Positions 30,954 through 59,619 of a stretch of DNA of 64,000 nt are shown here, in pieces; the stretch's first letter is position 1, and every line of letters starts with the position of its first letter. The position numbers and the translations under genes are program-made. Source of the DNA: Chrysomallon squamiferum. Lineage: Eukaryota > Animalia > Mollusca. Location of the stretch: assembly GCA_012295275.1 (NCBI GenBank), contig CM022665.1, forward strand, positions 46,872,001-46,936,000, given 5' to 3'. Under the pieces are notes generated by a model, which saw nothing but the letters and a program-made list of their open reading frames with translations, did no database searches and was not told where the DNA came from.

Positions 30954-31010
<57 letters not shown>

Positions 31011-34000
31011 CTTAGAAAGTGGAAATGTGTAAAAAAAATTAATAATAACATTGTTTTAAATTTAAATGATTTATTACAAATATAATTTTTACTTTTCACA
31101 CCGTATATTTTAGCTGTCTGCTTTATTCAAAATCAAGTAGAAAATTCTTTATGCAACGCTGTACATACGTGTACATATATATTCATGAAAAAGAAATTAA
31201 TATTAGCTCGTTACATCTTTCAAATCAGTCAGTCTGATGTGTTCACGTAACCAGTCGTAGATCCTCTCTTAAAGTCAGAATAAAAAAAGTGAAGAAACAC
31301 TACTCACTTGTAGTAACTGTCGCCGTTTGGTTAATTTTCTGTATTTTCATGCTGTCATCAATAACAGTTGTTACAGTCACTGTGTACTTGGTTCCAGGTT
31401 TCAACATGGTTATTACCACTGATTCATTTGAGGTACTAGATTTATTCTTACTGCCATTGTCTGATATCCACGATATTTCGTACCTGGATATTACAGAAAC
31501 CTCACCCTCTTGTTGCCATGTCACTGTGGTGTTTTCACGATTTGTATCGATAAAACTAATCTTCTTCAGCTTCAGATGATTGACTGTTAAAGAAAAACGA
31601 TATTTACAGTGTGTCCTTGTATGTCAGAGTGTATGTCACTGCATTCTATACTTCCTTTGCAGGATATACACGTTTATGTTGCTGCATATCAGTAGCACTG
31701 ACGATGTTTCAGCTAAGTTTAACATTGCTTACAGAACTACTGACCACAGAGGGCCATTTATCTCCATATTTTAAATAAATAATCTTTTATTCTTCACTGG
31801 CCTTTCAAATATCACATTTTCATGTGTGAATTTAAATTTAAAGGCGTTAAATAAAAAAGCAAAAAATGCATGTACATTAGTTTACAGCCACCAGAGCCAG
31901 ACAGATTTTTCATTTTAAACAGACTGTTCAGAGAATTACCTTGGATTATGCAGATTATATACAGAAGTATTTCTTTAAATGATTATTCAGATTTCCAAAA
32001 CGGAATTACCTTGGATTATGCAGATTATATACAGAAGTATTTCTTTGAATGATTATTCAGATTTCCAAAACGGAACTGAAGTACAAATGAGAGATTGGGC
32101 ATAAATTATTAATTCATTTGGTTTGTAACATTTTCCATCTAGATATGAAATATTAGGAAAATTTGTAAATTATACCTGGTGTACAGTTGACAAGTTTTGG
32201 ACTCCAGAAGAATCCTTCATTACACAGACATCGTGTAGGATTTGTAGAACTACAAGAGGCATTCGAGTCAGAACACACATCTCCAGCTTTACATGTCTTG
32301 TTATTGGGTATTTCTACAATTTAATGGAAAGATGAAATTTTACAATCAAACTAAATTTTCAGTTGTTTTATAATAATACCAAGCATGAGATTATGAATTC
32401 ATTGTTCTTAAATTTTCACAAAAGTATTTAATTGTTTTATAGAATGTAAAATAAATACAAGAGGCATATATGATAAAATGAATAGATTTGAATATTTGAA
32501 TCTATAAATGTACGCACATATCTGAATACTGACTATATTGTTTCTAATGGTCATAAAAATTCTTGATGAATAAAGCAGTAATATTCATTATGGAATTATT
32601 CCATTTTGTAATAGGCTGCCTAATATATCCCCATCAGATATGAATGAGTAATATTTGAAATTTAGAAAAGCAATTGTGAAAATAATCTATTTTCTTACTT
32701 TCAGTTGTGAATTCTGGGGATTCTATGCTGTTAGTACGTTGAAATTTACCATCTTGATCCAGAATTGTTACAATACTTGCAGTATACAACATTCCCCCTT
32801 GCAATCCAGACACGGTTACCGACGTTCCAGACGAACTATTCTGACTGCTGCCAACACTAACCTCGTATGAAATGGTAGAATCTGCTGCTTGAGAAATATA
32901 ATCTGACTGGTTCCATGTTAGTTTTACACTCCAAAACGACACTTCCTTGTAAGTAAACGAGTTTGGTTTCAGCTCATCCACTAACAGTAGAAAGTTATAT
33001 TAACACATAATCTTTTATTTTACTTTGTTTAAATAAACAAATTAAGAAATATGTTTTGATGTACAACGCATTTATCCTATAACAAACATCAGATGAAATG
33101 CTTACACATTCACACATTGTTTGTAAAGTAGCAGGCTCTTTTTGTCAGTGTAGTAAATTTTAAAATGAAATATAAAGTTCAGGTTGTTAGTCTCACGGAA
33201 CAAAAATGTGACAAATTGAAAATGTTAAACATTGGCACGTAATCACTGGAAATAATGTTACGTCTTTCAGTGTTTATTTTCTCTTCTAAAGTTTTTAAGA
33301 TATTCAGCTTTTTTTCTCTCACTGTCATCTGAATACATTTTATTTCCAAAGCATTAAACTAACAAAATCTGAAACATTTGTAGATTATCTACCATTATTT
33401 TAGAAATATACCAACCTGGATGACACTTTCCATCTTTGTTTCTGTACTTCCCAGAAACACATCTACAAACTCCTGTGTCAGAACACTCAGCAGAATACTG
33501 TTGTTGTCCACAGTCTCTTGTAGGATTAGAACATTTCTTGGTGAGAGCTTGTACTGAAAGTAAAATAATATTATTTATTCATTTATTATTTTACTATTCA
33601 TGTTTCTAGGAATCATTTTTTTAAATATTTTAAATAAATAGCTTAGATTAATGTTAATATATTCTTCTAAAGGATTTTTTCATCTTTCAGATAATTATAA
33701 AATTGACAACAAAACATGTAGTAGACTAAAAACAAATAGATAAGTTAATTTTAAGAATTGATAAAGATCTGAAATAATTTATTGAAGAAAACTTTTATTT
33801 CTATGTGTGTACTTATATATCTTAGAAAGCTGAAATGTGTAAAAGAAATTAATAAAAACATTGTTTTAAATTTAAAAAGTAATTGATATATTACAAATTT
33901 AATATTTTATTTTTACACCATATTATTTGGCTGTCTGCTCTGTTGAATATCATAAAAAACATTGTTTATGCAATGATGTACACACATGAACATATATATT

Positions 34001-37000
34001 CGTGAAAAAATATAAAATCAGTTTCTTACATTATTCAAACCATAGTCTGATGTCTTAATCTTTCCAATACTAGAACCCTCTTAAAGATAACATAAAAAAA
34101 TTAAGAAACACTACTCACTTGTTGCAATTGTTGCTGTTTTGTTAATTTTCTGTATTTTCATGCTGTCATTAATAACCGTTGTTACAGTCACTGTGTACTT
34201 GGTGCCAGGTTTCAGTTTGGTTATATTTGACGTGTTCGATGATGCTGACTCATTCTTGCTCCCCTTGTCTGGTGTCCATGATATTTCATACCTCGATATT
34301 ACAGAAGTATCACCGTCTTGTTGCCATGTCACTGTGGTGTTTTCACGATATGTATTGATAAAACTGATGTTCTTCACCTTCATACGAGTGACTGTTAAAA
34401 AGAAAAAGGTGTTTTAACAATGCCTATGTGTGTCACTACGTTCAATACTTCCTTTACAGGGCATGTTGCTGTGTATCTGAACTGTTGGTGATGTTTCAAC
34501 TACGTTTAATGTTGCTTGCAGAACTACTGACCACAGAGGGACAGTTAAATAAATCTTATTCTTAACGAGCTTCTCAAATGTAACATTTTCATGCATAAAA
34601 TTAAATATAGAACTGAATCAAGAAACAAGAAATGCATGTACATTTGTTTACAGCCACCAAAGCTGGTCAGATTTTACATTTTAAACAGACTGTTTTCAGA
34701 TAAAGAATTCAAATCAGATCTAGTGATAAAATTCCACAACAAATATTTTTTTATATATACTTTACTGAAAACAAAAGTTCAGAGAATTATATTGGATTAT
34801 GCAGATTCCTACATAATTATCTCTTTAAATGATTGTTCTTACTTCCAAAACAGAACTGAAGTACAATTGAGATTGGGCATAGATTGCTAATTTATTTAGT
34901 TTCTAACATTTTATTAATGAATGAAATATTTTGCGAACTGATAAATTATACCTGGTGTACAGTTGAAAAGTTTTGGACTCCAGAAGTATCCTTCATTACA
35001 CAGACATCGTGTAGGATTTGTAGAACTACAAGAGGCATTTGAGTCAGAGCACACATCTCCAGTTTTACAAATCTCGCTAATCGGTATTTCTGTAATTTAT
35101 TTTAATATACACTTTCTAATCATAAAACCAAATATGTCAAGATCTTTTTATAATTTTTTGAAATAATGAAATAATGGTATCTTTAATAAAAATCGTGTTT
35201 ATTTTTCATGTTGAGAATTGTATAACCATTTACCTTTCTGTTTACATTTATCAACAGTTTGATATTCATTAACTAGGACATATACATATAATTATTACAT
35301 TCAACAAGCAATTGCTTGAAGATTTCACGTTTTAAATATAATATTTTCTGCTGGTAATTTTTTAGTCTTTGTAACTTAAAATATATGTTTCCTTTGATAA
35401 CATGTTCTACATTCAGAATTTTTATTTTATTTTTCGCTGTGTTAATTTAGTAATTATTCCGCCAACAGAATCTGTAAATAGACATAAGAATATATACATA
35501 TATATATATAACGTTTACTATTTCACTGAAGATTTCGCAATGAGAATAAATTATTTTCCTCAGCTTCTTTATTTTAAACGAATTATTTTCACATATATTT
35601 GAAGCCCAAGATCAGCAGAACACAAATACATGAAATATGACAAAACAAATTATTACTTTGTGTTGTAAATTCAATTGTTTTGTTGTTGAGAACTTCAGTT
35701 TTTCCATCTTGTTTAAATATTGTGATAAAAGTAGCAGAGTATGACTTTCCAGCTTTCAAATTCTGCACTGTCACTGATTCTCCGATTGTACTGTTTGAGA
35801 GGCTTCCAGGATTCACAGTGACGTGGTAACTGATGGAATAACTAGGTAATTCAGGAAGATTTGCTGATGATTTCCATGTAAACTTTTCACTCCATGGTGA
35901 ATCTTGGCTGTGATTGAAAGAACTTGCCTGAATCTCTTTAACTGAAACACAAATATTATCAGTTATAATTTTGTCAGACCTAAACATAAAACATAAGGTT
36001 GTAATTTGTGTCTGATAAATAAGTACGCTTTTTCAGTATTTTGTTTGTTTGTTTACTTGCTTGTAAATTTTGACTGAAATCAAATAACTAACTGCTTTGA
36101 CTAACAAAACTTGCACATAATCATTCAACTGAAAACAAATACGCGAGTTAATCTTGATACTGGTAATACGATGATGTAATATTTACATAAAAAATATAGT
36201 TAGGTGTGATATTGTACGTTTTGATATTATACACAGAATACAGTGGATAACAAAGTGAATGGAGATTAATTCATTTCTTCTTGATGTATCAGTTATCTAA
36301 TTTAGGTTTTGGAAGTTTGTGTGTGATTGCGTGTGTTTCTGCCTGAGAAAATGAACTTACATTTTCTTGATATAAGAGCTACATTACAATAATCTATATG
36401 GATAAAGAAATATTTCACTTGTATTTATATTGTTGGATGAAAATATCTTATATATTTATAAAATGTTTTTTAAATCTTGACTCTAAAAAGGTGTAAAGTT
36501 GATATAAATATGATTAATAAAACTCGTAATTTATTTGTATCCTTACAAAATACAGAACACCTTTCAGTTAACTGCTGTCAAAATGAACATAGAATATGAT
36601 GAACTCTCTATTTCAATTTTATTTTAGGCTGATTCCTAGCATCTTGCACTCTTATCCTTTTAGTTACAAGCTAACAAAAATAACTTCATATATTCTCCAA
36701 GGATGATATTAAAATCTACAAAAATGGTGTCCTTAAGAGATGTCTCAAAAAATCTCAAACGTGACCAGTGTCCACTAGTTTTTAGTGAAAGACAGACAGA
36801 GATACCTTTCATTAAGATTTCGCCCCAAAATGAAGAGACTGGCACAGATATATTTTTTAACACAGAAACCTATTTATTAAAGCAACTTACTAGGTAAACA
36901 GGTTGCGTCTTGTTGATAGTAGCCATCACTACACAGACACACACTGTTGTTACAGTAACTGTTGTCTACTACAGATGTACAGTTGTTGTCTGTTCCACAC

Positions 37001-38551
37001 TCTACATCCAAAGAACACACAGAAATCTGAAACAATATACAAAATGAATTATTGCGTTTGTTTTTAGTAACGTTATACTTAACAGATATTTAAAACGTAT
37101 CTAGTAATCACAAAACAGCATTCTAAGATTCAGTTGTAGATATAGCCAGAAATTCCAGTGCTTTAATAATAATGTTATTCACTTTAAAATCTTAGATTTG
37201 AAAAGTTCAAGTAAAGCAATATAATTATAATTATATATCAGTTTTTCTTATTTGTAGCTGTATTCAATAACAATCATAACAATAATGATGCTTTTAACTG
37301 CATAAGGAGAATTAGGAATAAAAAAATATTCAGCTGTTTAAATAGTTCTGTGATTAACAACACTGACTGTTTTTGTTTGTTGTTTTTTTACACCTAAACC
37401 CCATTCTCAAAACGTGAGCCATAAAGTTTTAGTCAGTACTTTTCAAATGGTTTGTATATGAAAAGTTTTACTTTTATCTATTCAGAATTTAAGAGCTAGA
37501 GACCATTTTTTGATGTTAGACACCATTACATTGTGTCTGCCTACTCTGATCGGATGTGACTGATGACATGATAATCAGAACATGATGCATTGACTAACAG
37601 GATTGATTGGACTATTATAGATATCTGAAACATGAATTATGAGTTTTATTTTTGACTGATTTTTTAACGGAAAATGTCATCACTAATGTGCAACCAGGGT
37701 ATTTGTTTGTTTGTTTGCTTCACACTAAATATAAACTTTAAGTTTGAAAGCAATACAAAACTAAAGTTTTTACACATCATAAAGACAGTTTATTTCATGA
37801 TACATTTTTACAGTCTGAAAAAAGCCGTGATATCACACATTACAAACGCAGCATCAAATTTATTTGGTTCAAGAAGCTTTTGCATCTAAAATATAGCTGT
37901 AATCGGTAAATACCGCAAAGGACCGTATTATCTGTCACAACAATTATTTTCTCCCTTAATTTTGTGTATTTTTACATTTTGAAATTAAATGCTAAATCTG
38001 TGATTAACTGGATATAAATAAATAATAATAATAATAAAAAATCATTTATTTACCGATTTAACTGTATTAATAGTCTGTTGATTAGATGAACGGAGTTTCT
38101 TCCAACAACTTCGCATTAATTTTTGTCGACATTGAACTGATATTTGAACAGAACTTCTAATTATAATTAAATTAATGTAGGCATAATACAATCATGCATC
38201 ATTGTCTGACTGCTGAATTATAATGAGAACGAAAATGACTGTCATTGCTGTTTAGATACGAAGAACTCTACGAAAATCATCTACGACAAAGTGGATTAAG
38301 CCAACAATAAATAACTTAATAACTGACAAACTTAGTAACAAAGTAAATAATAACTAAATCAGTAAGTAAGAATGTAAATAATCTCACTTCAAATTAATGA
38401 TAGTAGTATATCTTCAAAAAATATTGAGATCAAAGTTGAACTAGTAGCCAGACAGGTAAAATTTCAAACATAAATTTACCTGAATACAGCAGGTGAAGAT
38501 GAGAGCCGTGACACAGAATAATCCAGGCAGAATTGATTTTGAAGAAAACAT
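20960..38551 (-). CDS. Gene B: phosphatase-less RPTP-related receptor (signal peptide, 8 EGF/EB-like Cys modules, 10 FN3, stalk, TM, ITAM-like tail), 26 exons, about 1650 aa
   Basis: Minus-strand exons in transcription order: 38551-38480 (ggcgccATG; MFSSKSILPGLFCVTALIFTCCIQ), 37026-36891, 35941-35657, 35089-34952, 34391-34119, 33553-33416, 32980-32699, 32313-32176, 31583-31308, 30686-30552, 30106-29825, 29493-29356, 29098-28826, 28394-28257, 27859-27578, 27334-27197, 26810-26532, 25985-25692, 25222-25035, 24493-24292, 23940-23782, 23349-23224, 22986-22890, 22322-22252, 21952-21847 (TM), 21266-20960 (tail, TAA). Total 4953 nt, phases compatible, no internal stops seen. Confidence 0.88.
30957..31008. 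repeat. (TG)n microsatellite
   Basis: Directly visible. The paralogous intron near 33803 has only a short tgtgtgt. Confidence 0.95.
31933..32073. repeat. ~70-bp direct tandem duplication in an intron
   Basis: gaattaccttggattatgcagattatatacagaagtatttcttt.aatgattattcagatttccaaaacg occurs twice. The paralogous intron at ~34783-34852 has a single copy. Confidence 0.9.
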
Positions 38552-38950: not shown

Positions 38951-39631
38951 TATTCAACAATAATTTGTGGTTTATAAAAGAATGGTTGTATTTACAGGTG
39001 TTTTCGTTCCCAATAGACGATTCTTTATGTGTAGTATCTTCCTTGAAGAACGTTTTATCGGTGACCTTTCTCTGTATATATCGCAGACGTTCTTAAGCCA
39101 GAAATAAAACTTCCTCTTCTGTGTGAATATTTTTATCTCTAATCTTAGTATCGAGGACACTTATCTTAGCCTGACTTGTCTGTTGTAAGTGTTTATCTAC
39201 GTGTCAAATGACAATACAAGTTTTTAACACGGCTGATATAAAATATTTCTAGAATATAAACATCTGCCTCAGGCTTTCTAAGTTGAATATTCGACTATAA
39301 GCAATAAAAGTTTAAATAAAAATCACTACATCAAAAATATATTTACAAGCCTATATCATAAAAGGAAAAAAAAAACAGCTAGCTTTTCAAAATATAGTGT
39401 AATATTAGATGATAAAATAATATTTTCCATCTTTCATTAAGAATGTCTAACGATTAAGAAATGAATACAAAACTATATTAATATTAACATCAAACTGTGT
39501 GAGTAGACAATACATATTTACACAAAACAGAAGTTAATACAGCATCAAGCACTATTTCTGAGAAGCCAGTTTTTTTCCTGATTGCAGAGTGAGAACAAAT
39601 TGCTTCCCATTTTATCAAATAAAAATCTAGA

Positions 39632-39959
39632 CTACATTTGCTTTAGATTGCTGTAGACATTTTGAGAGGATGTCGCAGGACCCAGTTTTTCGTATTCATT
39701 TCCACCAGCAGCAGCCTGTCTAACGTTAACATAATCATCATTTCCAAACGTGCTTGTTTCAACCTGCTGCGTGTCTCCTCCCTGGTGTGGCACATTGCAG
39801 TAGTAGCCACTGACTTCTCTGTTTGAGAGATTTCCAACGTGACCACCAGCTTGGACGTTGCTCGGTCCACTCATCATTTCATGCTGGTCATTTTGTGAGT
39901 TCACAAAGTCACTGCTTCTTCTTGGAGATTCCTGTTCTGCCCCGTGTCTTCTGAGATAC
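39632..39959 (-). CDS. Terminal exon of gene C: tyrosine-motif cytoplasmic tail
   Basis: WYLRRHGAEQESPRRSSDFVNSQNDQHEMM...GYYCNVPH...DDYVNVRQAAAGGNEYEKLGPATSSQNVYSNLKQM*. Confidence 0.88.
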
Positions 39960-41655
39960 CTGAAAGAACAGCGAGGAATTATTTAATCAGATATTTTAAA
40001 GGGAAATATGATAACTTACACAATGAACAGTCCTGATAACTTAACGCTGAATCCCAGAAGCATATTAAAAGCATTAGGCTGTGGTTTGATGGTACGATGC
40101 TGGCCTGAAGACCAAACCTTACCAGGATCTCACGTTTACTTTACGAAAGAGTTGTGGTCTTGTCTACCCATTGGTTGGTATATATTAAATAATCTTTTCT
40201 TGCTAACTGAAAAATCAGTAGTCTGTGATGAGACAGGTGTGTTTCTTCTCTGTTTATCAAATATGTCTTTCATTACAGGTATAAAATAAAACCATGTGAC
40301 AAGCATACTGATAATAAAACATTAAAACGTTTTGTATATCAGTAATGGAGTGTTTTTCGAAAGATTGTTGATTGTATTTCAATATCAGATACAATGTAAA
40401 GCAAATGATGATTGAAAATTGTGGTCATTAAATTTGAAATTAAAGTAAGATTTTTACCAAAAGAAAGCACCGCTGACAACAACCAATAACAAGAAAAGTA
40501 TCACTGTCACCACAGAGAAGGCTATAATAGCTGAACTGACTTGATTTTCTTTTTCTGATTCAGCTGTAAAAGATAAGCAGAAATAAAGACGTTTATTTAA
40601 TGCACACATGTATAAACATACATACTCATACATACTCACACATGCATGCACCATACATACTGACATGTAGCTATACATTTGTGTTCTCATGTACCCCCCA
40701 CATATATATATACATGCATATACAAACGTTCTCAAACACATATTCTGGTTTACCCCCACATATACATATGCATGCACACACACACATATACATATGCATG
40801 CACATACACATACACACATATGCTCACATACACATTTCCACATAAACCCCACATACACACGTGCATACACACACAAACACACACATTCACATAAACATAT
40901 TCTGATAGCCCCTTTACACACATATGTACACACACAAATGCACACACACTCATTACACACACTCACACTCATATACACACACCCTGATATTAAATATGAA
41001 AATCAAATAAAATTTAGTCCATACGAACCTGTTTTCGTTTCAAACTGAATTCCAGCACTTTCCTGACAGCCAGCGTCAGTACAAGCAAAGAGAACAGCTC
41101 TGAAATCAGACAAAATTGAGTTCCTAAACTCACATTCAAAAGTAAATAAAGTATCAAGTCTAGTATACAAAAACAATAATCGCTAATTTCTACTTCTAAT
41201 CTCGTAAATAAAGGATAACAATAATGACATCGTGCTGTGGTAAATTTAATCTTTTCTTTAGAAAGATTTGTGATATTTAACGTTCTCCTAAAAATAATAA
41301 ATAGTAAAATAGAAGACACGATAACTAGGCAATCTTTAAATAATTAATAAAACGTTACAATGACCACGTCTGGCTGGGCATCCATTGTATCCTTTAACAA
41401 TTAATATTGCAAACAAAATAAATGTTTTTAAATATGGTTTCGTTATACATCCAAGTTCACTTAATTAACAGCAATTTCTATACTTAATATATATATATAA
41501 GCAAGACAAATAAATGTGAGATATGAATAATGATGGAGGGAAAGTTAAATTACAAACGTGTATTTATTTGCAGGTTTCAGTGGTCCGTTACAGATTGAGT
41601 ACTTTTGTGTGCTACAGTTCATTGATCCAACCACATATTTCTCCAGTTCAAGATC

Positions 41656-41720
<65 letters not shown>

Positions 41721-44225
41721 TAATAATGATAATGATAATAACAAAAACAACATTAATGATGTTGATGATGATAATAATAAGATTAACAGTAATGAGTTTT
41801 TACATCGATGTTAGTCAATCAATCAGTTAACCAGTCACTCAGTCAATCAGTCGATCGTTCAATGTCTTTCTGAATAGACATAATTTACCTTTATCAATCC
41901 AGCTGTCATTTGTAGCTCTGTATGGAAGTTTGAAATCAGTAAGATTTGAAATGTACCAGTTTGTGTAGGAACTGTAGTCATCTGTAGAGTGAGTGCTTCT
42001 GCGAAATCGTCTTTTCATGGAAATCAGTGATTGGTAATCTAATAATGATAACATGATAATATATATCTATAGATGAAAAGTCCAGCAGTTCAAAGAATAT
42101 TGTTTAAAGTCTTAAATGTGAATGGTTGAACAGTCTAACAGTCTAAGTATGACACATCTGTAAGTTTCGTAAGAGATTAAAAGTTTAGAGACTTGAAAAA
42201 ATATGCTTCAAATACTTTAATCTGAATAAAAGATATCTCGATAACATGCTGAACATAGGCCTACACACTAATTACACATATACATCTAATAATTTACTTT
42301 TTTATATTTTAAATAATACATTTACAGACACAAATTTGAAACACAGAATACGAAAACAGATATTTATAATGATCTAATATGTTTTCAAAGACATATTCAA
42401 AGTTTTAAGAATATTTGAAGAAAACTCATAAATGGTTAATAAATATTTCAGATAGCGAACGTAACGTAAATGTTTACGTTACCTGCAGTGTAAACATCTT
42501 GTCTAAAAACAATGATTCCAGCCAGTTTTACGTGACCTGCTACGTTTTTGTAGACAGAGCGAGGATGGACTATCATGACAAACTGTCTCTCGTACAGAGT
42601 CTCTTCTGAAGGTTTTCTTATTACTGACTCTAAAACTGGAGCTGGAAAAGAATAATAATAACAACATTGTCAGTTTTTATAACATCATCTATTGTCACTT
42701 ATACCAGTTGGCTTTCAATTGTATTACATTTTATTTGTGTCTACTCGTCCAGTTGTAACATATATGAAGTATTTTTTTTTCTTTAAAGACGAGGAGAAAC
42801 AATCAGTGAAGTTTCAATAATTGATATAATATCATGTTTACTTTCATGTCCCACAAAATACAAATACTTCTTTTTTTGAAATTTAGTTTTGTTTTTAATA
42901 AACAAGAAGATGAAGTCTGAATTCACTTTTAATGATTTATCTGCAGATAACTAACATCCTATGAATGTAAAATCAATACTTAAGTATTTAATGTGAAATA
43001 TTTGAAACATACATCCCGGTGGGGTGTAAAATGATGTAGTAGCTGTTTCTCCATCATAAATTGTCTTCAGTCGAACCTATACAAAGAGAAAAAAAACACA
43101 CACAAAAAAAAAAAAAAAAAAAATCAGACAAACAAACCTTTTCAAATTTAAATTCCAATGATAATTAAAAATAAAATTTCCATTTCTTTACACAAACTGA
43201 ACACCCAAACTGATGAATATATGAAACAATAAATCCAGACTGAAGCAAATTTAACTTGTTCTAATAATATGAAATGAAACAGAAGTATAACTATTACCTA
43301 TAGAGAAAGATTTGAAAAATAAAACGAATACTGAACAAATATATTAAAAATCTTTATTAGTTTACTGTAAATAACTTTTTATTGTAAAATGTTTTAAATC
43401 AAAACCAGTAAATACTCACATAGAAATTATACATGATTTCTACTGTTACAGGTACAGTGATTGAAAAGTGACAGTTGTTTGTGTTTTCAATTGAAATATT
43501 GTTAGTAATAACATCATTACTTTCCTGCAAAATAAATACTTTTTATTATCATTAGTAATAGAAATGGATTTAATTATTTTAGGAACATTGAATGAACTTG
43601 TTGTTAATGTATATATAAACCATAAAAAACCATGCACATTGACATAGAAACATAAAATAAACTTGTTCCAACAAGAAAACATAACTTTTCCGTCCTATTT
43701 TAGAATGAGATGGTGTCAAAATAAAATAAATTATGTTTCTCTACATACCATGGTTGTGTTGTAGACTAAAAATGAACTTGTTATAATTCCGTTTCTGCCA
43801 TCTTTTTGTTTAGGACAGTCATAAGTAACCAAGACAGCAGTGTAGTTGTTTTCAATGTGACTTACATTAAAATTTATAGGTGCTGCTGGTGCTGTGAAAA
43901 AAAAAATGAAAGAAAAATTATCAGATTTATAAAGCACAAGTAAAATTCAAGATGTCCGACAATCAAAAAAAAAAACAAACAAAAAAAAAAATGAAAGAAA
44001 AAAAAGATATGTACAAATTCTTTTTATAACTTCACTGATACAATAAAATTATTTTACAGTGATTCTTTATACTTTAATATTATTAAATGAAATTGCTTTG
44101 TTTGTTTATTTATTTTATATTTTTAATATTTCCTTTCAAGAAAATAAAACAAGATAACTGTTAACATCTGAGTTTTTTAGCTCATTATCCACTTCATGTA
44201 TTTATTCTTATTTTTTTAAGACTGG

Positions 44226-44269
<44 letters not shown>

Positions 44270-47200
44270 GATAAAATATACATTAGTTTGATTTATGGTG
44301 TTACTATGTAACTTCTAAAATTGGTTTGCTGTTATATATACTATACCTGATTGTTTTGTTTTTATGTAATCTGTCCATACAGGTTGTGATTTTCCAGCTG
44401 ATGTGTTTGCTGTCAGCTCAAACTTATAATCCCAGTAACTAGAGAGATATTCAGCAGTGTATTGGTTTGAAGTCCATCCTGAAATTACCAACAGTTTATG
44501 TAATTGTCAATACACATTCAATTAGTAAATACTTTATTTAATAACAGCAGTAATATCATCTTCGTTTTCTTCTCCTCTTTTTGCTGCTTCTTCTCATTCT
44601 TCTCTTTCTTCTTCTTCTTGTTGAAATAAAGAAATTATTTGTCAGATTATTTTAAATTCAGTTTAAATAACTGAACTACGTTTTTTAAACATATTTCAAC
44701 AACAGTTGTTATACAGTATAGTCGTGCTTAACTCTTAATTATATAGCTAGCTAGATAGATAGATGCGTGTGTATCTGTGTCGATATTAACCTTTGATAAT
44801 TTCATTCTTTATTATTTTATCTGATTTTCCATTTTCTGTTTTCTCGTAAACAATCAAATTGTAGTCAGTTTTTCCTGGTTTTGGAGACTCTGGTGACCAA
44901 GTCACTGTTATTGAAGAACTTGTTATTTCACTCACTCTAAAGTTGTCTGGTGGTGCTGCAGCTAAAATAATAATAAAAATAAATGTAAACCAAATTTTAC
45001 AAAGGTCATGTTTATTTAATATGTATCTTAATGAAACTCTGATAAATGTAAATCATGGCAACTGGAGCAATTAAACTCTTCAGTTAATGACTTGAATCTT
45101 TCAGCGGAAATCTGTAAAATTTAAATACTGTTTATAAACTATAAACAGAACAATTAAGCAAGAAACATAATTAATTTTTTTTTTAATAAAACAGCTATTA
45201 TATTTTTCTCAAAATGTATGTATGTATGTATGTATTTATATATTTATTTATTTATTTTGGTTTGTTTGTTTGTTTGTTTATTTATTTACTATACTTATTT
45301 TTATTATTATTTTTTTATTTCCTGTAAGATATTTAATTAAAATGTGTCTAATGATAGTTAATCCATACGTTTGGTTTTTGTCATATGATACATCTCTGTT
45401 GTTGGTCCAGAATATAATTCATTGTAAGTAAACACACTGACAGTGTAGTTTGTGAAAGGTAAAAGATGTGTCAGCTTGTAGCTGAATTCTTTTCCAGCAT
45501 CATTCAGTACACTGCTTCTAATATTCACTTTGACTGGTGTAACATCTTCACAATGCATGTCACTGTCAACCTACATTCATAAATGTTAAAACAAAATAAA
45601 ATAAGAAAACATCTAATAAAAATCTATTATCATTCAGAAACATTTATGTAATCTGTAATCAATAGCTGTATTTCATCGTTGATTAAACAGTTTCAAAACA
45701 TGCAGTTTATTAAGTATTATATTTACTGTTTAAATTATCTTCTGTTAAAAGAATTAAGGCAGGATACTGAAGAAAATAAAAATTTGTTTTATAGCCTCTT
45801 CAACATATGTGAAATAATGACATATTTTCACCAAAAAATAATTAGAATAAGAAATAAATACTAAAATAATTAATTTTATTTGTTTCATGGATTTCTATTA
45901 TTATTATTTATTCTTATTTTTTTTTTATCTTGGCTGAATTTTATATATATCATATATTCCTTTTTTAAGTTTATTAACAAATATTAAATTTCACAGAAGC
46001 TTTTGTTTATGGTTACTTTACTTGAAATATAGTTTTTAAACAGTTTCAGAACACACTTCTTGTTTAATGGCTTGGGTTTCTTCTCTTTATGTGAGAGTTT
46101 ACGTGTTGCTTCCTGTTCTAACAGTTTCAGTGAAAATACCTGTAACCTTGTTATTACTGAAACTATTTTAAATCAGGATATTGTGATCAGCATTTGACCA
46201 AAAGTTTTAAAAGAAAATTTAATAATAAATAAAATTATCTTACATTACTCATACTGGTGCAGTCACTACAGTAAAAGACAACTTTCTGTTGACAAATCTG
46301 GTTTGAAATTTGTTGAAGAGTTAAAATGTAAGCACATATAACACCATTGGGATTGTCAGGACGATTCCAAGACACAAACATTGAACTGTAGGTGATGTCT
46401 GATACACTGAGACTCTTCACATTATCAGGAGCTGCAAGTAAAACAAATTAATGTATAAACATAATATGCAGTGATGGAATGACCAACAGAAATCATATAT
46501 ACTTAAATCAGTGTTTGAAAGGTAGATAGCACCTGATATCAAAGTTACGTTTTTTGTTGTTTGTTTTTGTGGGGAAAGAATATTTACTGTCTTTAAGATT
46601 TCATTTCATTTTTATTCTTCAAGACGTACTCACTTGTTTCATTTCAGAAAAGGTTTTTTTAAATATCCAGCAGCAGATATATACAAGCACACGTGCATGT
46701 GGGGACGTGGCAGTAGCAACTAAGTTTGTTATTATAGTTTCTGTTATTTGAAGAAAAAAAACGTTTGTCCAAAAACAAAAATTATATATATATATATTGT
46801 TTAGGCAAAAAAATAAAAAACACCACATGCACTGTAGTATGCTATTTTTCATTGTGTTACTTTATTGCAAACATACCACATTAAAACTAGACACATTCAA
46901 ATATTTAAGTTTTGAATTCTAAAGCAGTTTCTTTTTATTTATATTTTTGGCTCCCTAATTTCCTTGATATTGGCTTTAAATATTGTTTAGGCAAAATAAT
47001 AATAAAAAGAGCACATGTGCTCTCTAGTATATTATTTTTCATATTTTTCATTTATCGGCAAAATACCACATTAAAGCTATAGACAAACTGAAATATCTAT
47101 ATTTTGAATTCTTAAATCGTTTTTTGTTCTTCCTTATGATACTCTTTCCCTCAATAAAAATTGATCTTAAAAATATCCAGAATTCACTTTTATAAAACTG

Positions 47201-50200
47201 TCTATTTTTTTAATTCATTTTTTTTTTATTATTACAAGATATCTATATCTATTACCTAGTATAACTTTTAAAACATTATAAGTAGAACATTTAAACCATT
47301 TTGTAAACATTTTTACTAAATTCAGTCGTTATAGTTTTTAATGGAGAGATCTTTATTCAGCCTACGGCTCCGATAAAACCACTAAGATAAAAACTTAAAA
47401 GTTTGTCAAAAGAAACAAACGCAAACAAACAAAAAAAAAGATTCTAAAAGAAATGTTTTTAATGGATTTACAATTACTGAACCTAATATTCAGTTTATTC
47501 TAAAAAAAAAAAAATTAAACAAATTAAAAAATTAAAAAATATCATTATATTTACGTTTTATTGAACTACGGATTCCACTGTATGTGTAAGTTTCACTGTA
47601 AACGCCAGAGCTGACTGCAGTGATATTTAAAGTGTAATAATTTCCAGGAGTTATGTCACTGAAGTACACAACTTGAAGATTTTCTCCTGATGGTGTCACA
47701 TTTTGAGTCTGTCTGTAAGAGTCAGAGTCACCAGTGAGATTTACTGTGTAGTAATCAACACTTCCTTCAGATTTCTTAAAATACAGTGTGATGTTTGGTG
47801 CTGTTAAATTACTTTTCTCTTCATCAAATGAGCCTGGTATGTCAGGAACTAAAATTATAAAGAATATTAACAGTAAGTTTATTTTTCATTTATATGTTAC
47901 TTATAATATCTAGAAATAAAAGCTATATTATTAATTTATTCTTGTGTTTTCCTTTAATTCTTCTTCTTCTTCTTATTATTATTATCTTTATCATCTATCC
48001 TTCTTCTTTCCTTTTATTATTATTATTATTATTATTGTTGTTGTTGTTGTTGTTTTTGTTGTTTGTTTTAATGTTGTTTCTTTTTTTTGGTTGTTACTTA
48101 ATTTGATAATTTTTGCTTTAAGAAAATCATGTGTAATTTAACAATGTCCAGTTATTCTTTAATTTTATGTATTTCGACCGTGAAATACAACAATTTTTTA
48201 TTTCACTGAATTTGGGTGATTAGTTTAAAAAAATTACTCACATATTGATTAAAAGTAGTGTTGCAATGGACCTTGATTTGTTTTATAATGAATATTGGGA
48301 AATAAATGTTATTTGAAAATGAGATGAAATCTGTCATTGTTTTCAAAAAAAGTGAAAAGTTGGTCGCACTCTTCTATAATATATACTAAGTAATATAGAA
48401 TGGAAGAAAAGTTAAAAACTAAAGTGTATTATACAAAGTATCTATTTCTGAGATAATCTTTTGAATAAATATTGATAAAAATGTGTATTGTGAAAACAAA
48501 TCCATCTATGTATTGATATATCGACTCAGAAGGGAAATGGTTTTATGAGCACTAATATATGTTATTGAATATGATTTTATCTTACATGTTCTCTGTGAAA
48601 GACTTGAAGAACTCACGGACTGTTCTTTCTTTGTTTGGTTAGTGAAAGCTCTAACAACAACTGTGTACAGTTGTCCTGGTGTTAAACCTGTAATATCTGC
48701 AGTGTTGTTTTCATAGACAGTACTCGACCCTTTGTCAACTGGTGTCCACACAACATCATATTTAGTCACTAAATGACCATACACCTGATTTGGTGACCAG
48801 CTCACTCTCAAAGATGTTGTGTTAGTTCTGGACAAATTAGTAATTTTTGGTTTTAAATCTGACACTCAAAATTAAAATACAAATATTAATATAAACATTT
48901 TTGAAAGGCATTTGCAAAAAGTCAATTTGAAACATCATTAAATTATTCTGTAACTTCAAAGAAAACTAAAATTCTGAATAAATGAAATATGAAAAAAGTA
49001 ATAGTGAATTGCTGGACTGGTAGATATTTTCACATAAAATTTTAATATTTCAGTCGGAATTGAATATAATTTTTATTTTTATTATTCAGTACTTTTGAAT
49101 AAGTTCATTGCTTTATATTTAATGACATTTAAATTGTAGGAAGCAGAAGAGTGTTTGTTGCGTTGAATATTGCTTACTACGTCAAACATCGTTTTTGCAT
49201 TTAGTAAGAAATGGTTTTTCCTCGTGATAGCACTGATGATTGCTGTACTATTGAGGAATTTCATATAACAGAATAAAGTGTCCTCAAGGAAACAAAGAAG
49301 AATTTATAATACTTGTAATTTATTTTCATGCCTGCAAAATATGCATCACTTATTTTGATCTCTGTCAGTTAGCTGCTATCATCTAAATATACTCAGAAAA
49401 AAAAAATAAACACAGACTATAATAAATTTTCTATTTCAGTTTTTGTCTTTTCTTTTTTTTTTCTGGTTTCTGATTGCTGTTACACTGTGATGCTTTTGTT
49501 CAAAAGTGACGAAAACAACTTCAGATTTTCACCAAGAATGACATTAAAAACTGTACAAAACAGAAAATAAATGGTGTCCATAAGAGCTGTATAAAAACAT
49601 TTCGAATTTGACGAGTGTCCACTAGACAGACAGACATACCTTTCATTAAGATTTCACCCCAAACTGAACAGACTGACACAGATACCTATTATTTAAACAT
49701 TTTAATATTAAAATCAAGAACATACCTATTATTTAAACATTTTAATATTAAAATCAAGAACATACCTATTATTAAAACGACTTACTAGGTAAACATGTTG
49801 TTGTATTCTGTTGATAATAGTCATTATTACACTGACACACACTGTTATTACAGAGACTGTTATCTACTACAGATGTACAGTTATCATTTGTATCACACGG
49901 GTCACCCAGTGAACATACTGAAATCTGAAACCATAAGCAAAATTAATTACATAATATTTTTAGTAACATTATACGTAATAGACATTTAAAATTTGATCAG
50001 TAACAAACATAGCAGAATTCCAAGATTCATTTGTAATTAATATAGACAGAAATTACAGTGCTTTAATAATGTTGGTCATTTTAAAATTTTAGATTTGAAA
50101 AATTTAAATAAGTAATATAATTACAGTTAAATACTAGTTTATCTTATTTGTAGATGTATGCAATAACAATCATAATAATAACAGTGATGATAATGATGAT

Positions 50201-50632
50201 GATTTTAACAAAATTGTTTGTTCTGGGGGAAAGAAGATGCTTCATGACTTTATGAAAATTACATTGAAAAGAGAATTAGGAAAGAAAAAATATTCAGTTA
50301 GTAATATGCCGTCAATAACAAAATGTTCCGAAATAACAAAGCTTCACGATCAATTTATTAATAATTCGAACTTGCAAGATATATTGTTTTGTAATAAGTA
50401 AATAAATAAATAAATAAATAAATAAAAATTAAATTTAATTAAAACAAGTTGAGCACCTCCAGTTAATAGTAAAATGTATAGTTATGTTCAAGCCAAACGT
50501 TGAACTACTAGGTACGTCAGGATTCGCGAATAATACAATTTAAAAAGTAACAACATTTACCTGAATACAGCAGCTGACAATAAGAGCAGTGACACAGAAT
50601 AATCCAGGTAGAATTAATTTTGAAGAAAACAT
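39632..50632 (-). CDS. Gene C: phosphatase-less RPTP-related receptor (signal peptide, 1 EGF/EB-like module, 5 FN3, stalk, TM, ITAM-like tail), 17 exons, about 899 aa
   Basis: Minus-strand exons: 50632-50561 (MFSSKLILPGLFCVTALIVSCCIQ), 49924-49786, 48864 (or 48858)-48586, 47848-47555, 46431-46244, 45570-45369, 44961-44791, 44478-44347, 43891-43749, 43524-43420, 43076-43013, 42641-42483, 42038-41889, 41654-41558, 41099-41029, 40563-40458 (TM), 39959-39632 (tail, TAG). Total 2700 nt, in frame. Confidence 0.88.
40595..40985. repeat. Degenerate (CA/TA)-rich low-complexity intronic tract
   Basis: Imperfect cacacatatacat repeats. A shorter counterpart lies in gene B at ~21990-22210. This tract produces several spurious ORFs. 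Confidence 0.85.
49683..49772. repeat. ~40-bp tandem duplication in intron 2 of gene C
   Basis: tacctattatttaaacattttaatattaaaatcaagaaca occurs twice, plus a partial third copy. Confidence 0.9.
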
Positions 50633-51010
50633 GGCGCCGTCTGTTGACAGTATTTTACAATTTCTTAGTGGATATACATTGCCTCATAGAATCCAGAAGT
50701 TCTTCAGTGACGTTAAAAATAGTTTATATAACGACTTTTTATATTATAAACTTGATTAAACAGTCTGGATTTACCATCAGTAATATTTAACATCAGCCAG
50801 AATTTTTCTACTTATTTAAACTCTCAGCGTTATGAGAAATACGTTCAGACGACTTGTACTAACTGTTACAACGATAATATCAAGTGACTGTAATCACAGA
50901 TTTTTTAAAACAATTTTTTGTATCTGTGTCCTATATCCCAATACGCGGTTGTTTATCTTACATATCACAGATACCTTTTGACAACTGTTTTCATACAACA
51001 TTCAACAATG
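50633..51010 (-). promoter_or_regulatory. Putative promoter/5'UTR of gene C
   Basis: TATATAAA on the minus strand at 50730-50723, the same spacing to the ATG as in gene B. Paralogous to 38552-38950. Confidence 0.55.
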
Positions 51011-51178: not shown

Positions 51179-52197
51179 ATAATAATAATAATAATTAGAA
51201 TAATAATAATTAAAAATACTAATAATCTTAATATGAATTTTCAGTTAAATGGATTTTTCTGATTTATTATGAAAATTACCATTGTTTTTTGCTTTATTGA
51301 TGTAAATTGAATTGATGGAAATCTGCTTGTTTTTTGTTTTCAAATAATTATTAAAAGGCGCAAATTAGTTTCCAATTAAACGTAAATAGGAGCCTTTTCC
51401 TTCTTAAAATGCTGAATTGTATATCAACTGAAATGATGTTTAGTGATCATTATTTATTTCTTTATTAGAGTTGTTGATTTGTAAGCTTTTTAGCCGTGTT
51501 AAAAACAAAACTTAGTATGGTCTTTTGATATGTTGATAAACACGTTTAAGACAGATCAATCTCTCTAAGATAAGTGACCTCGATACTAAGGTTAGAGATA
51601 AAAATATTCACACAGAAGAGGAAGTTTTATTTCTGGTTTAACAACGTCCTCCCTTACGACATGCTATGACACAAATACGTGTGCTTATACGACACTCCTG
51701 TGTATTCTTTTACTTTTAGGTCATAAATGTAAGAGTTCATATTATCAGTGTCGGCTTCTCTCATTGGCTGGGTCAAATCATGTGCTGTAATGTAACGTAA
51801 ACGCTGGTGTCAAAGTTTCTGATTGGATACTTCCACCAATGCGGGCAGTAGCTGTTATCGGAACGTCCGTGTTTTTCTGATTGCCTGGTTACACCCACGC
51901 GTGTGTACACCGTTACCAGAGTGTTGTTTTCTCTAACTGGCTACTTTGATTTACAATCTTCCCGCTTCAAGAGAATATTTTTCTTCTTCCTCAAATAAAT
52001 ATCCATTAAACATCATTTTAACAGTTCCTTCCAAGTATCCGTGCTGCCTTCATGGTTTGGCGAACATCTATATTCATATTTAGAAGACATCGTATTTTAT
52101 TTCACAGTCTTAAAACAGAAAATAGGGATTTTTCGTATAAAATGATACTTCGTAGTTTTTAAACTGCTGTCAGTCTCCTGTTTCAGCCAAACATTTA

Positions 52198-55288: not shown

Positions 55289-58200
55289 CATTCAGGGCTG
55301 TCAAAATTTCCGTAATTTTGCAAAACTTTCCACAAAACACGACACCTTGCAAATAAAAATAATTAATAATACTTTCATCGTTAATTCTTTTCGTTTTTTT
55401 ATAGAAAGATCATTATTACAAATGTGATTGCTTAACGAAGGCCACGGAACTAGATTTCATCATAAAACAAGCAAAAAGATACATGGCACAACTATGATTC
55501 CTTCAAAATCGATTAAATTCTGAGTAACTATTTACGTATAGAGAAAAACGAACACAGTGACATTCACGTTTAGCTTATTGATAACTAAAACACGTTTAAA
55601 GGCAATGTACATGCTACAAACAAATCAGAGGCATACTGAGGCATAAACAGAACAAGAGAACACTGACCATCCAAGCCATCAGTACTATTAATACAGAAAT
55701 ATTTACACACCTTAATATTTTTTCTTTCTTAATTCTCCTTATGCAAGTAGTTTTTATAAACATTTTCACCACTTTCAAGAAAAATATTTTACTGATTACA
55801 GTTTTTTAGCATAGCAAGTTTCCAAAAATTAATTTGTATTAAAATCATCATCATCATCATCACTGTTATTATTATGTTATTGAATACAGCTACAAATTGA
55901 TATATAATTAAAATTATACTACTTTTATTAGCTTTTCAAATCTAAAATACTACAAATGAATAACATTATTATTAAAGCACACGACTCGTTACGATCCGAT
56001 ATTCTGGACACTCTTTTATGTGCTGCAATCGTAACGAGAACCCATTCTTTTCCTTACCCAAAACTCTTTTCTGCGACGGACACGCCCGCTGACCTGTCAG
56101 AAAGCGTGCCCGTCTAAAACGTGTTTCACAACAGCTTGTTCTGATTAGCACATTATTTTTTTTTCACTTAACTATTAAAGCACTGGCAATATTAATCACA
56201 ACTGAATCTTGCAATGATATCAAGTTACAGGAACATGTTTAAACGTCTATTACGTATAATGGTACTGAAAAGAAAATGTAATTATTTTTATTGTTTCAGA
56301 TTTCACTGTGTTCTTTAGGTGCAGAGTGTAAAACAACAGACAACTGTGCCGTAGATAACAGTTTCTGTAATAACAGTGTGTGTCAGTGTAATAATGACTA
56401 CTATCAACAAAACACAGCATGTTTACCTAGTAAGTTGTCATAATATAGACAAGATGGTGCCTTGCGTCTGCTTTTTTTCTTTCTCTTTACATTCGCAATA
56501 ATCGATCAAACATTTGTTTTCTGTCTGTTTTTCTTCAAAACGTACTATCAAGCTAACAAAGTAGTACCAGGTGTGACATAAGATGAGTTGAAATTCAAAA
56601 CATTTACCATGCTGACAGAAGGAGATCATGTGAACAACTAACTGAACAGTGTTACTGTTGAGATTAGAGGTTGATAATAAAAACAGTTCTTACGAATTTG
56701 TATTTAGATTAAATTAACCGAAATAAACATGTTAACTGACTGAACATAATTAAATGTAACGATTACAATTTTACAACTACACATGTAGGGATCGGAGACA
56801 CGAAGAAGCAGATTGCATGTAATCGTAAACAAACACAAGAATAAATCTTTTGTTAAGTCACTTTATCTTTTATTGCATCAGTCTGCATAAAATATTTACT
56901 TGAAGCCCCCCTTTTAAAATTAGAATTACATGAGACAACTCAAGTGAAGTCATTACACAGATTTGTCATTTTAGCAATTGCTTAGAATTATTACCTTTTT
57001 TTTTATTATTAATTGGTCCATTTCTCTAAACAGAGTAAACACTTAACCACAACATACACTGGCTCTAGATACAATTATTTACAGTGAAACTAACAATGTT
57101 ACTTAGGAAACTCATACTTTACAGAAACATTGCTTTTATACAGTATTGAAATAATTTAGAATGGTCTAGTATTACATTTAATAGAAATACTGAAACAAAC
57201 ATATTTTTTGGTTTAAAAGTATATTGTTTAATAATTTCATAAATATGTTATTTGATTGAAATATTTCTGTTACAGAAATTGGTTACAATATGACTTGCAG
57301 GAAACACGATGTGTGCTTGGACTCTCACGCAGTTTGTAGAAGGAAAAGTAAATGTTATTGCATAAAAAAATACTTTTGGAGTTCATCGTCCAGTGTTTGT
57401 AAACCAAGTAAGTAATAATAATCATTAAACAATTATAGGAAATATTAATTTCAAACAGAAAATTAACAATTTTAGCTGATTCTTGAGAATAGGCTAAAAC
57501 CATAATAAAATCTGAAAGGCAAGTTATGCATTTAAGAATGCTAGATTTTTTATAAGCTGATCTTAACATCTTGGACTATTATTGTAACTAAAAAACATAT
57601 TAAAGGTGATGTGATCAACAAGGCAAAAGACAATGTGAAAAGAATGTGAACCCTTAAGTAAATGAAGATTTAGAATTCTTATGGCATTGCCTTTCCACAT
57701 CAGATTTCTGGTTGCTGAGATACGGGGCAGTAAAGACTGGTTACCCAAAATATCAAATTTCAAGGGGCAGAATTTCGAAAAGTACTGGTCATCTGAACAT
57801 TAAATCTGATGTTCATGTGTTTAGATAAACCCAAACTGGAATATCTATTTTTAATGAATATGACATGAACTGATCTTTTCACAGTTTCTAGTGATATTAA
57901 AATTGTATTCTGTTCTTTTTTCTTCTTTAAAAAAAAAAAATGTAAATCTAGGTGTTTAAAATTTTACAAGGTGAACTTATTTAGAATAGCATTTACTATT
58001 TGTTAGAAGGAAAATTTACATTAAGCTGAAAATATATACGGGTTGCTAAAAACTTAGAGATACTGAAGTTTTTGACAAATAATGTTAATAGTAACTGTAT
58101 AATAATAAATTAATTCTAAAATAAAACAGGGTATAACAAGATGTGTTGAAACCAAAGTCTTTTCAACACTTTACTTCATTAATAAATGCCAACACAAATA

Positions 58201-59619
58201 ATGTATGAAAAAATTAAAATCTGAGAATCATATAATCAATGTTTATGTAACTTCTGATACATATTAGTTTTTTGCATATACTATTTTAGAGATATTTAAA
58301 TAAAGCACGGAAAATATTACATATTAAAGTTTTCTATTTATTTTTCTTATTTATTTATATATACATTTTTTTATTTTGGTTTTGGTTTTGTTCGCCAGTG
58401 ACTGATCTGAAAGTAAAGGACATCCGTTTTACAAATACAAATCGTGAAAACACCACAGTGACATGGCAGCAGGATGGTGAGCTTTCTGTAATATCCAGAT
58501 ATAAAATATCATGGACACCAGGCAATGGCACAGAGACTGAATCGAATACCTCAAGAGAATCACTGATAACCAAGCTGAAAGCTGGAACAGAGTACACGGT
58601 GACTGTAACAACAGTTGTTAATGACAACACAAAAACGAAGAGAATTAACGAAACAGCAACAGTTACAACCAGTGAGTGGTGTTTGTTCTTTTGTTCGTCT
58701 AAATGCTAAACTGACGCTAATATATACAGAAAACTTCCATATATGAATTTATATACGATTTCAAAGTAAAAATTAAAGAATTCTGCTTAATGCTTGTTAG
58801 AAATACATTCAACTAATTTTAAATTACATAAATAACAGTGTTTAATAATAAACAACATTTGTTGTTGCTAGTTCAAGCTTTGAAAGGAACATGTACAAAT
58901 ACAGCACAATGTGGAAGACAGTATTTTGCTGAATGTTTTGCTGGAAGATTTTGTCGATGTATTTCTGGACGATACAGAAATATTGACGGAGAATGTCATT
59001 TAGGTATGTGACATAAACACAGTATCTGTTTTCATTTCAATATAGCGCATTGTATTTAGAAGTGACATACTGGAACTTTAAGTAGATGACTGAGGCAAAT
59101 AAAACACATTTTGTGTTGTAATATATAGACTGAGTTGAAAATAACATTTCCAGTCTTTTTAAAGAAATTATCTTGCAGCCAGAAATATAAAATGAACGGA
59201 AAGTATCTCATGTACGAAATAAAAAACTGTAAAAAAATTGAGTAGTAATTGTCAACAATTTTTTGTTGTTCTTCTTGGTGTTTCAATAATGACTCAATGC
59301 CCAGTGATTATAGATGATTATATTTGTGTTTCAGTTGAAGAGTTACGAGTGAGTTCTTTTAGTCACAGCCAAGATTCACCATGGAGTGAGAAATTTTCAT
59401 GGACGTCATCAACAAAACTCTCTAAAGCACCTGACATGTCCATCAGTTACCAGGTTACAGTGAACCCTGGACATTTCTCAAACAACACATCTGGAAATTC
59501 AGTGATTCTGCAGAATCTGAAAGCTGGAAAAAAATATTCTGCTCAGTTTATCACAATGTTTCAACAAGATGAGAAAACTGAAATTGTTAATAATGAAATT
59601 GTTGAATTTACAACACAAA
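53620..59619 (+). CDS. Gene D: 5' part of a fourth EGF/EB-FN3 receptor paralog, 3'-partial near the assembly gap
   Basis: Exons 53620-53673 (MLSGLISVIAVTLLCCIQ|gt), 56300-56429 (ISLCSLGAECKTTDNC..), 57276-57407 (Cys module), 58399-58671 (FN3), 58872-59003 (Cys module), 59335-59619 (FN3). Each is homologous to a gene B exon, with the same phases. Confidence 0.85.
55970..56183. mobile_element. ~192-bp insertion flanked by an 11-bp target-site duplication
   Basis: tattaaagcac at 55970-55980 and 56173-56183. The paralogous introns of B (~37158-37168, reverse complement) and C (~50058-50068) carry the empty site. There is an internal inverted repeat, ctcgttacgat/atcgtaacgag. Confidence 0.75.

Follow-up and report, generated by a model that had tools for sequence, protein, structure and literature searches.

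The pathogen-driven paired receptors of vertebrates are typically marked by gene conversion restricted to the ectodomains of opposing partners. The CEACAM1/CEACAM3-type pairs, especially ceacam301/303 and ceacam350/351 of Xenopus, are the closest precedent (PMC5112662, PMC8860441) for the locus analyzed here, which comes from the mollusc Chrysomallon squamiferum and lies in a window of 64,000 nucleotides (assembly GCA_012295275.1, contig CM022665.1, positions 46,872,001 to 46,936,000, forward strand; all coordinates below are those of the window). Three genes, A, B and C, are linked within 51 kb and share FN3-encoding (FN) exons that are 77-82% identical in amino acids (aa). Gene A (1-16848, + strand) is an R3/PTP10D-type receptor tyrosine phosphatase, and B (20960-38551, - strand) and C (39632-50632, - strand) are phosphatase-less paralogues. 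C is a mosaic with an A-like region from FN1 to FN4 and B-like sequence before and after it; the reading frames are intact and the signaling motifs are present. We favor, with a probability of roughly 0.6, the reading that repeated ectopic conversion, in long tracts as well as in tracts limited to exons, has kept the FN3 faces alike on phosphatase and on ITAM-like (immunoreceptor tyrosine-based activation motif) tails. The sequence history, a mosaic exchange, is well supported; that the genes act as paired receptors is a prediction to which we would give even odds at best.

In several respects the locus follows the CEACAM pairs. The genes are linked and oppositely oriented, conversion is limited to ectodomain exons with divergent flanking introns, and the activating partner bears its own ITAM-like and GRB2-type YxN motifs; ectodomain identity is 80-93% in the CEACAM pairs and 82% here. 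The CEACAM receptors, however, use immunoglobulin (Ig) domains rather than FN3, and their inhibitory partner carries inhibitory (ITIM) or switch (ITSM) tyrosine motifs rather than an intrinsic protein tyrosine phosphatase (PTP) domain. In the mollusc, unlike in the vertebrates, a 5-kb tract that includes introns occurs beside exon-only tracts, and whereas the CEACAM ligands are known, here a common ligand is predicted. Siglec-5/14, which the initial annotation had taken as the model, and Siglec-11/16 likewise have ectodomains homogenized by conversion and distinct signaling halves (PMC13358205, PMC5701461). The activating Siglecs, however, have short tails and signal through DAP12 by way of a charged transmembrane segment (TM), whereas B and C carry tyrosine tails of 101-108 aa behind an uncharged TM; with ITAM-like and YxN motifs of its own, C is closer to CEACAM3-type receptors. 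Siglec ectodomains are also near-completely identical, against 82% here. An invertebrate likeness is the Hydractinia Alr cluster, with similar ectodomains (Ig and FN3-like) and divergent, ITAM-bearing tails; it differs in being Ig-based and in having an ITIM instead of a PTP domain on the inhibitory side, and conversion there is only suggested (PMC9546547). The locus is not a member of the CEACAM or Siglec families, as it has no Ig domain, no ITIM and no charged TM. No mollusc case, and no receptor phosphatase as the inhibitory partner, appeared in the literature searched, whose coverage leaves out most subscription journals and is not proof of absence.

The family from which A derives is better described. 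Like PTP10D, PTPRO, PTPRB and PTPRJ, the R3 receptor protein tyrosine phosphatases (RPTPs), A has FN3 repeats, a single PTP domain and YxN motifs near its C-terminus, and probably also the long juxtamembrane domain with cysteines (PMC5336234). That source derives the R3 RPTPs from one protostome precursor with expansion only in flies, and the word mollusc does not occur in its available part. Phosphatase-less paralogues with new tails, exchange of ectodomain exons, and a WED instead of a WPD loop set the present locus apart from the R3 RPTPs described there. In snails, the GRC/PTC1 region of Biomphalaria contains grctm2, an FN3 receptor with an RPTP as best match (PMC4361660), and the LG5R subgroups 1B and 1C join one lectin ectodomain type to cytoplasmic regions without and with PTP domains (PMC13712769). 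GRC and LG5R resemble our locus as clusters of single-pass receptors, in their case tied to parasite resistance; 1B and 1C differ in being EGF/fucolectin receptors with two PTP domains. Neither paper, in its available text, describes a phosphatase that exchanges sequence by conversion with a partner lacking one, and the term ITAM is absent from that of PMC13712769; PMC7895826 offered nothing about this family in its available text. A broader proposal, which we hold only tentatively, would be that molluscs constructed paired immune receptors from a PTP10D-type phosphatase, with a PTP-bearing inhibitor, phosphatase-less decoys on which an ITAM/Grb2 tail is new, and conversion matching their FN3 faces against a microbial ligand. 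On this view a crossover in the block that A and C share in inverted orientation would also flip the 35 kb between them, exchanging their phosphatase and ITAM halves beneath each promoter and N-terminus.

We assembled the gene models of A, B and C manually from their splice sites; every intron is GT-AG, and each of the three genes has an open frame. Pfam searches on single exons supported fn3, EB and Y_phosphatase families. The A model has 28 exons and an open frame of 1278 aa, with a 5' end beyond the window, and encodes FN3 repeats, a long juxtamembrane domain, a TM, a single PTP domain followed by a stop, and the C-terminal YxN motifs YENR and YQNV. Of the seven FN exons of A that were scanned, six matched Pfam fn3 (E 8e-7 to 0.02), mostly under the curated cut-off because these exons encode part-domains. 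Y_phosphatase was found on all five PTP exons scanned (PTP exons, 12409-16395, + strand), which are 80% identical in aa to P0001, a PTP10D-like protein of Gigantopelta aegis. For one of these exons the best named matches, two of the eight candidates, were the Gigantopelta protein (82%) and a protein of Babylonia areolata (68%). The closest homologue of A has Ptp10D as its best single-domain PDB match, and the juxtamembrane domain aligns to the gastropod orthologues around a CNGPL motif; what the initial annotation called a stalk is probably the long FN3 domain that R3 RPTPs have next to the membrane (PMC5336234). The PTP_tm family gave a weak match (E 0.017) on one C exon and none on the three A stalk exons scanned. 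KNRY and HCSAGVGRSG motifs are present along with the catalytic Cys and the loop Asp. The WPD loop reads WED in A (exon 14742-14896, + strand) and in every gastropod orthologue retrieved, the P-to-E change being common to P0001, P0002 and P0004. A is an R3/PTP10D-type receptor phosphatase, with enzymatic activity predicted from its motifs. Its sole ITIM-like match sits within the PTP fold; inhibition by A would come from its own PTP domain and not from an ITIM. Short duplicated acceptor-like pieces lie before one PTP exon (15467-15736), and an intron in the stalk region holds a tandem duplication of about 400 bp (9974-10785, + strand, 71%).

B and C have a different cytoplasmic end. In B (26 exons, 1658 aa) the signal peptide is followed by cysteine-rich (EGF/EB-like) exons that alternate with FN3 exons, then by FN0 to FN2, stalk, TM and tyrosine tail; B is without FN3 and FN4, and its FN2b exon is spliced directly to the juxtamembrane exon. 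C (17 exons, 897 aa) encodes a signal peptide, an EB/EGF-like module, FN0 to FN4, a stalk with RFRR, a TM and a tail of 108 aa. Neither TM contains K, R, D or E, and neither gene encodes a PTP domain, the stop lying 101-108 aa past the TM. The tails are 72% identical, and both have YxN motifs upstream of a terminal YxxL-x9-YxxL: YERL-x9-YSKL in B (20966-21016, - strand; aa 1641-1657) and YEKL-x9-YSNL in C (39644-39694, - strand; aa 878-894), the latter preceded by YCNV and YVNV. These ends fit the relaxed ITAM definition Yxx[I/L]x(6-9)Yxx[L/I] (PMC9546547), and shuffling gave P = 0.0015 for C and 0.004 for B, values that are not independent of each other. ITAMs are phosphorylated by Src kinases. 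The ITAM of an oyster Ig receptor recruits Syk (PMC6994640); therefore the pathway exists in molluscs. YxN is a Grb2 binding motif (PMC5112662). A HMMER search with the alignment of the two tails against 1.84 billion proteins found no real relative, its sole match (E 1e-3) being rejected as an unrelated repeat protein. A MAFFT alignment had suggested that the tail derives from a degenerated PTP N-terminus or from the YxN tail of A, and this idea was also rejected: in a comparison covering five PTP cytoplasmic regions, local scores were no higher than those of shuffles in 10 of 10 comparisons (P 0.07-0.43). Furin-type sites occur at the same juxtamembrane place in all three genes, RHKR in A (8942-9064, + strand) and RFRR in C (41889-42038, - strand) and B (23224-23373, - strand), and suggest that the ectodomains could be cleaved or shed.

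The exchange between A and C is seen in both exons and introns. A 445-8212 (+ strand) aligns with C 47951-42807 (- strand) across the FN1 to FN4c exons and the introns between them. The exons are 86-96% identical in nucleotides (nt) and 82% in aa (427 codons), with a synonymous divergence (dS) of 0.18. The introns are 82% identical in ungapped blocks that span 72% of their length (32% when shuffled), a divergence of about 0.21; past the block, ungapped coverage of the introns falls to 23%, against 20% when shuffled. The block is longer in A (7.7 kb) than in C (5.1 kb) because A has an FN2-FN3 tandem duplication (1744-6864, + strand; exons 1744-4434 and 4685-6864; dS 0.23, introns 0.20); FN2-FN3 is single copy in C and in the Babylonia orthologue P0002. 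The initial annotation had proposed a sharp boundary within one intron. That intron and the two exon peptides quoted with it were found, and the local alignment ends within it, at A 8212 and C 42807. Counted from where exon FN4c begins, the first 200 columns are 88-90% identical and the 100 after them 73%; identity then drops to 53-60%, the level of unrelated AT-rich introns in this window (GC 28.6%). In the juxtamembrane and TM exons of A (8400-11319, + strand) the introns are at background against C, the stalk is 45% identical in aa and dS is saturated, a step of more than tenfold from the FN block. The exon directly past the boundary is only 37% identical in aa between A and C and near-identical between B and C (152/159 nt). 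Divergence is thus not uniform along the alignment, the step being present at synonymous sites and in introns alike. The same comparison does not bear out the description of the FN region of C as nearly a copy of A.

In a sliding window C changes from A-like to B-like at 42800-42700. The junction intron includes a spacer of 151 bp (42656-42806, - strand) that matches neither A nor B, and beyond it the stalk, TM, tail and 3' flank of C (39269-42655, - strand) are shared, introns included, with the 3' block of B (20594-23954, - strand; stalk dS 0.14, introns 0.21). The A-like block has a 5' edge as well, at A 445 and C 47951, and upstream the 5' flank, signal peptide and EB exon of C (49403-50958, - strand) are again B-like and older (introns 0.29). 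This 5' edge and the 151-bp piece had escaped the initial annotation, as had the sharing by B of FN1 to FN2b exons without their introns.

The exons of B give evidence for a second kind of exchange. FN1 (25692-25985, - strand) is 88-90% identical to A and C, FN2a (25035-25222, - strand) is 93% identical to C, and FN2b (24292-24493, - strand) is 94-95% identical to C and to repeat 2 of A. The B introns adjoining these exons are at or near the shuffled level against A and C (local scores 23-61 versus 24-47 for shuffles), and the likeness fades about 10-40 bases from the splice sites. As the FN exons are shared while the B introns there are at background, the exchange involving B was exon-limited. 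In the intron at 23941-24291 (- strand), which is not C-like even at its 3' end, B has a short inverted repeat at about 24061-24118. The B-C dS of 0.085 for FN1 to FN2b is the lowest among the 21 region sets compared, A-B being 0.15-0.19 there. In FN2a all 10 informative sites join B and C against both copies in A, though the introns of C flanking this exon are A-like. The affinity of C also alternates between the two repeats of A along seven segments (chi2 34.1, 6 df, P 6e-6; maximum-difference permutation P 0.003). FN0 has yet another history: B (26532-26810, - strand) is 84% identical to A (dS 0.34) and 77% to C (dS 0.64), the odd-one-out sites number 43 for C, 12 for A and 16 for B, making A and B the close pair, and the introns are unalignable in all three pairs. 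Because no single tree fits these exon and intron patterns, several exchanges of two sizes are needed. Re-homogenization of the ligand-facing region between inverted genes, as first proposed, is supported in part, with three genes taking part in the exchange; inversion was not required, since the same-strand pair B and C also exchanged sequence. The B-C dN/dS of 1.04 in FN1 to FN2b against 0.32 in the stalk (Fisher P 0.037; small counts) would fit an outer face on which selection is either relaxed or diversifying. Among the 40 variants of other runs that were listed (of 236), some have the base of A or of B; since paralogue contigs can align at 92% likeness, we did not count these variants toward segregating conversion.

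The exchanges are mostly not recent: A and C have diverged by about 0.2 substitutions per site, some ten times as much as the 0.6-1.4% by which three long X5 contigs differ (4/686, 6/444 and 11/813 letters). The older split beneath them is harder to date. The FN1-FN4 region of A is 81% identical to that of C, against 27-31% to Babylonia, Nucella and the orthologue P0005, so that ectodomains group by species, whereas the stalk and TM of A are 49% identical to the Gigantopelta phosphatase and 41% to C. Together with the saturated stalk dS this agrees with the proposal of an old split of the phosphatase and ITAM lineages whose ectodomains became alike later; the order of the splits did not come out of the trees, from which P0007 (fish, E 3e-4) was excluded as a generic FN3 match. 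A starred A+B+C clade on the full-stalk alignment, of which Gigantopelta fills only 42% of the columns, was lost on shared columns and was set aside. The B/C branch in the stalk and TM tree is long (1.96 versus 0.6 for A), and the apparent age of the split is inflated because the stalk evolves faster on it. By "old" we accordingly mean only that silent sites are saturated and that the divergence is like that between genera.

The long branch and that starred clade are what would be expected had there been no exchange at all: A, B and C would be duplicates of about one age, and in the B/C line the stalk, TM and tail would have evolved very fast once the phosphatase was lost. Protein-level acceleration, however, does not saturate synonymous sites and introns, which are saturated past 42807; nor does it agree with a B-C stalk dN/dS of 0.32, and the exon-only likeness of B would be left unexplained. 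We consider this account largely refuted and most improbable.

A parallel to repeated conversion may exist in Babylonia areolata. A search with the P0002 ectodomain returned five of 7997 candidates, among them the paralogue P0006. P0002 and P0006 are 92% identical in FN4, 95% in the stalk, 70% in the TM-juxtamembrane region and 83% in the PTP domain; the order is opposite between P0002 and Nucella (52%, 54%, 63% and 77%). The pair would thus be a protein-level parallel, between two phosphatases, with its boundary at the TM, and relaxed selection on the PTP domain of P0006 could also give this pattern. P0006 reads HCSNGVGR and WEDDSA where P0002 reads HCSAGVGR and WEDYSA, and is possibly a weakened phosphatase.

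An artifact of assembly, in which C would combine haplotypes of A and of B, is unlikely and has the least to recommend it of the explanations we considered. It would fit that none of the 32 pieces listed (of 2062) spans the whole junction intron and that the 15 joints listed (of 50) do not include the splice of FN4c to the stalk. The exons of C, however, differ by about 18% from A and by 4-13% from B, beyond the 0.6-1.4% of the X5 contigs; the junction disrupts neither the frame nor the splice phase, and exon order in C is the same as in the Babylonia orthologue. Nine runs from three studies contain part of the junction region, and contigs of four of these runs (X2, X4, X5 and X9) were aligned to 41780-47400. 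X2, X4 and X5 contigs, one run from each of the three studies, have variants at 42790-42803 flanked by 31-66 letters on each side and therefore cross the end of the A-like part. RNA contigs of run X9 include an exon-bounded piece (44347-44440) with no differences from the FN3b exon of C, which is absent from B and differs in A, suggesting that C or a near-identical copy is spliced; five of 30 bins had no RNA cover, to which no weight is given.

Other contigs show variation around the junction. In one X4 contig (42797-42853), 55 bases at the A-like edge are replaced by 15 letters that partly resemble the version in A, from an allele or a further paralogue. X2 and X9 contigs at 42913-43070 and 43418-43523 differ from C by 11/158 and 7/106 letters, fewer than A does, and represent haplotypes or paralogues intermediate between A and C.

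Under repeated conversion, the locus would have arisen stepwise. An R3 phosphatase was probably duplicated long ago, and one lineage would have lost the exons for the PTP domain and acquired a tail with tyrosines. Next, about 0.2 substitutions per site ago, C would have exchanged a long tract with A, or with an A-like paralogue; this tract would have replaced FN1 to FN4 along with their introns and ended in the intron that precedes the juxtamembrane exon. Shorter, exon-sized tracts would have gone on passing among B, C and the repeats of A in places where intron pairing had been lost. Exchange would not enter the stalk, TM and PTP domain of A because homology there has been lost, and selection likely also holds the signaling halves apart. 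The three receptors are predicted to encounter similar ligands and to send opposite tyrosine signals: A would damp signaling through its own PTP domain, and B and C would activate it through Src phosphorylation, with Syk/Shark on the twin YxxL and Grb2 on YxN. B and C may then serve, toward the ligands or microbes binding A, as decoys or counterweights. Should the pairing be functional, microbes would probably dock on an R3 phosphatase in this gastropod, and the locus would offer a model, open to testing, of what RPTP-like FN3 receptors do in the resistance clusters of snails, GRC among them. The occurrence side by side of long-tract and exon-only homogenization also makes it a clean case for intron divergence limiting conversion tracts.

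Several observations pull the other way. The 82% aa identity of A and C gives no assurance of shared ligand binding, and the sequence comparison does not give the donor direction of their exchange. In run X4 the summed contig depth, which is not a copy number, is 775-850 on exons and 56-143 on introns, which hints at unsampled paralogues that could be the true donors. The strict ITAM, D/ExxYxxL/Ix6-8YxxL/I in the available text of PMC5112662, does not fit either tail, the spacer being 9 in both and the acidic -3 residue occurring only in B; Pfam gave no family on the B and C tails, and the same pattern as in the tails arises by chance within the PTP domain of P0002. The Babylonia proteins are both phosphatases, from automatic gene models, compared at the protein level. 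On shared columns the stalk and TM tree leaves the order of A, Gigantopelta and B+C open (approximately unbiased test, p-AU 0.345 for A+Gigantopelta), and a runs test of the three-way pattern is not significant (P 0.065). Lastly, intron ages are equal in the A-C block (0.21), the B-C 3' block (0.21) and the A duplication (0.20).

Given these equal ages, a single chimeric origin of C would fit too. C would then have formed once, about 0.2 substitutions per site ago, from an A-type FN1-FN4 and a B-type stalk, TM and tail; its likeness to A would be decaying, and the later exon conversions would be incidental, with no selection for pairing. The A-C introns (0.21) match the exon dS (0.18) and hence give no hint that a long tract was exchanged recently, and conversion between close paralogues can be neutral (PMC8860441). 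A one-time event, however, does not account for a junction spacer that comes from neither donor, for a 5' end that is B-like and older, for the odd FN0 of C, or for the heterogeneity among segments; at least three or four events are required. A single origin is an unlikely competitor to the repeated conversion that we prefer.

The family extends beyond these genes. A partial fourth member, D (56294-59618, + strand), has B-like cysteine-rich and FN3 exons 40-75% identical in aa to B and C; it stands head-to-head with C, is transcribed divergently from it, and runs into the one 200-base gap of the window (about 59945-60143), showing that further paralogues exist. A homologue search with the FN1 exon of C was weak, none of 146 candidates passing. 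B holds an internal array (27197-35089, - strand) in which a four-exon unit of about 2.8 kb (cysteine-rich, FN3, cysteine-rich, FN3) is present in three copies and part of another; its units have a dS of about 0.19-0.20, the same age as the A duplication and the A-C block. An element of 150 bp, possibly a small transposon, is found inverted on both sides of C (39086-39234 and 51492-51648), its two copies being 83% identical.

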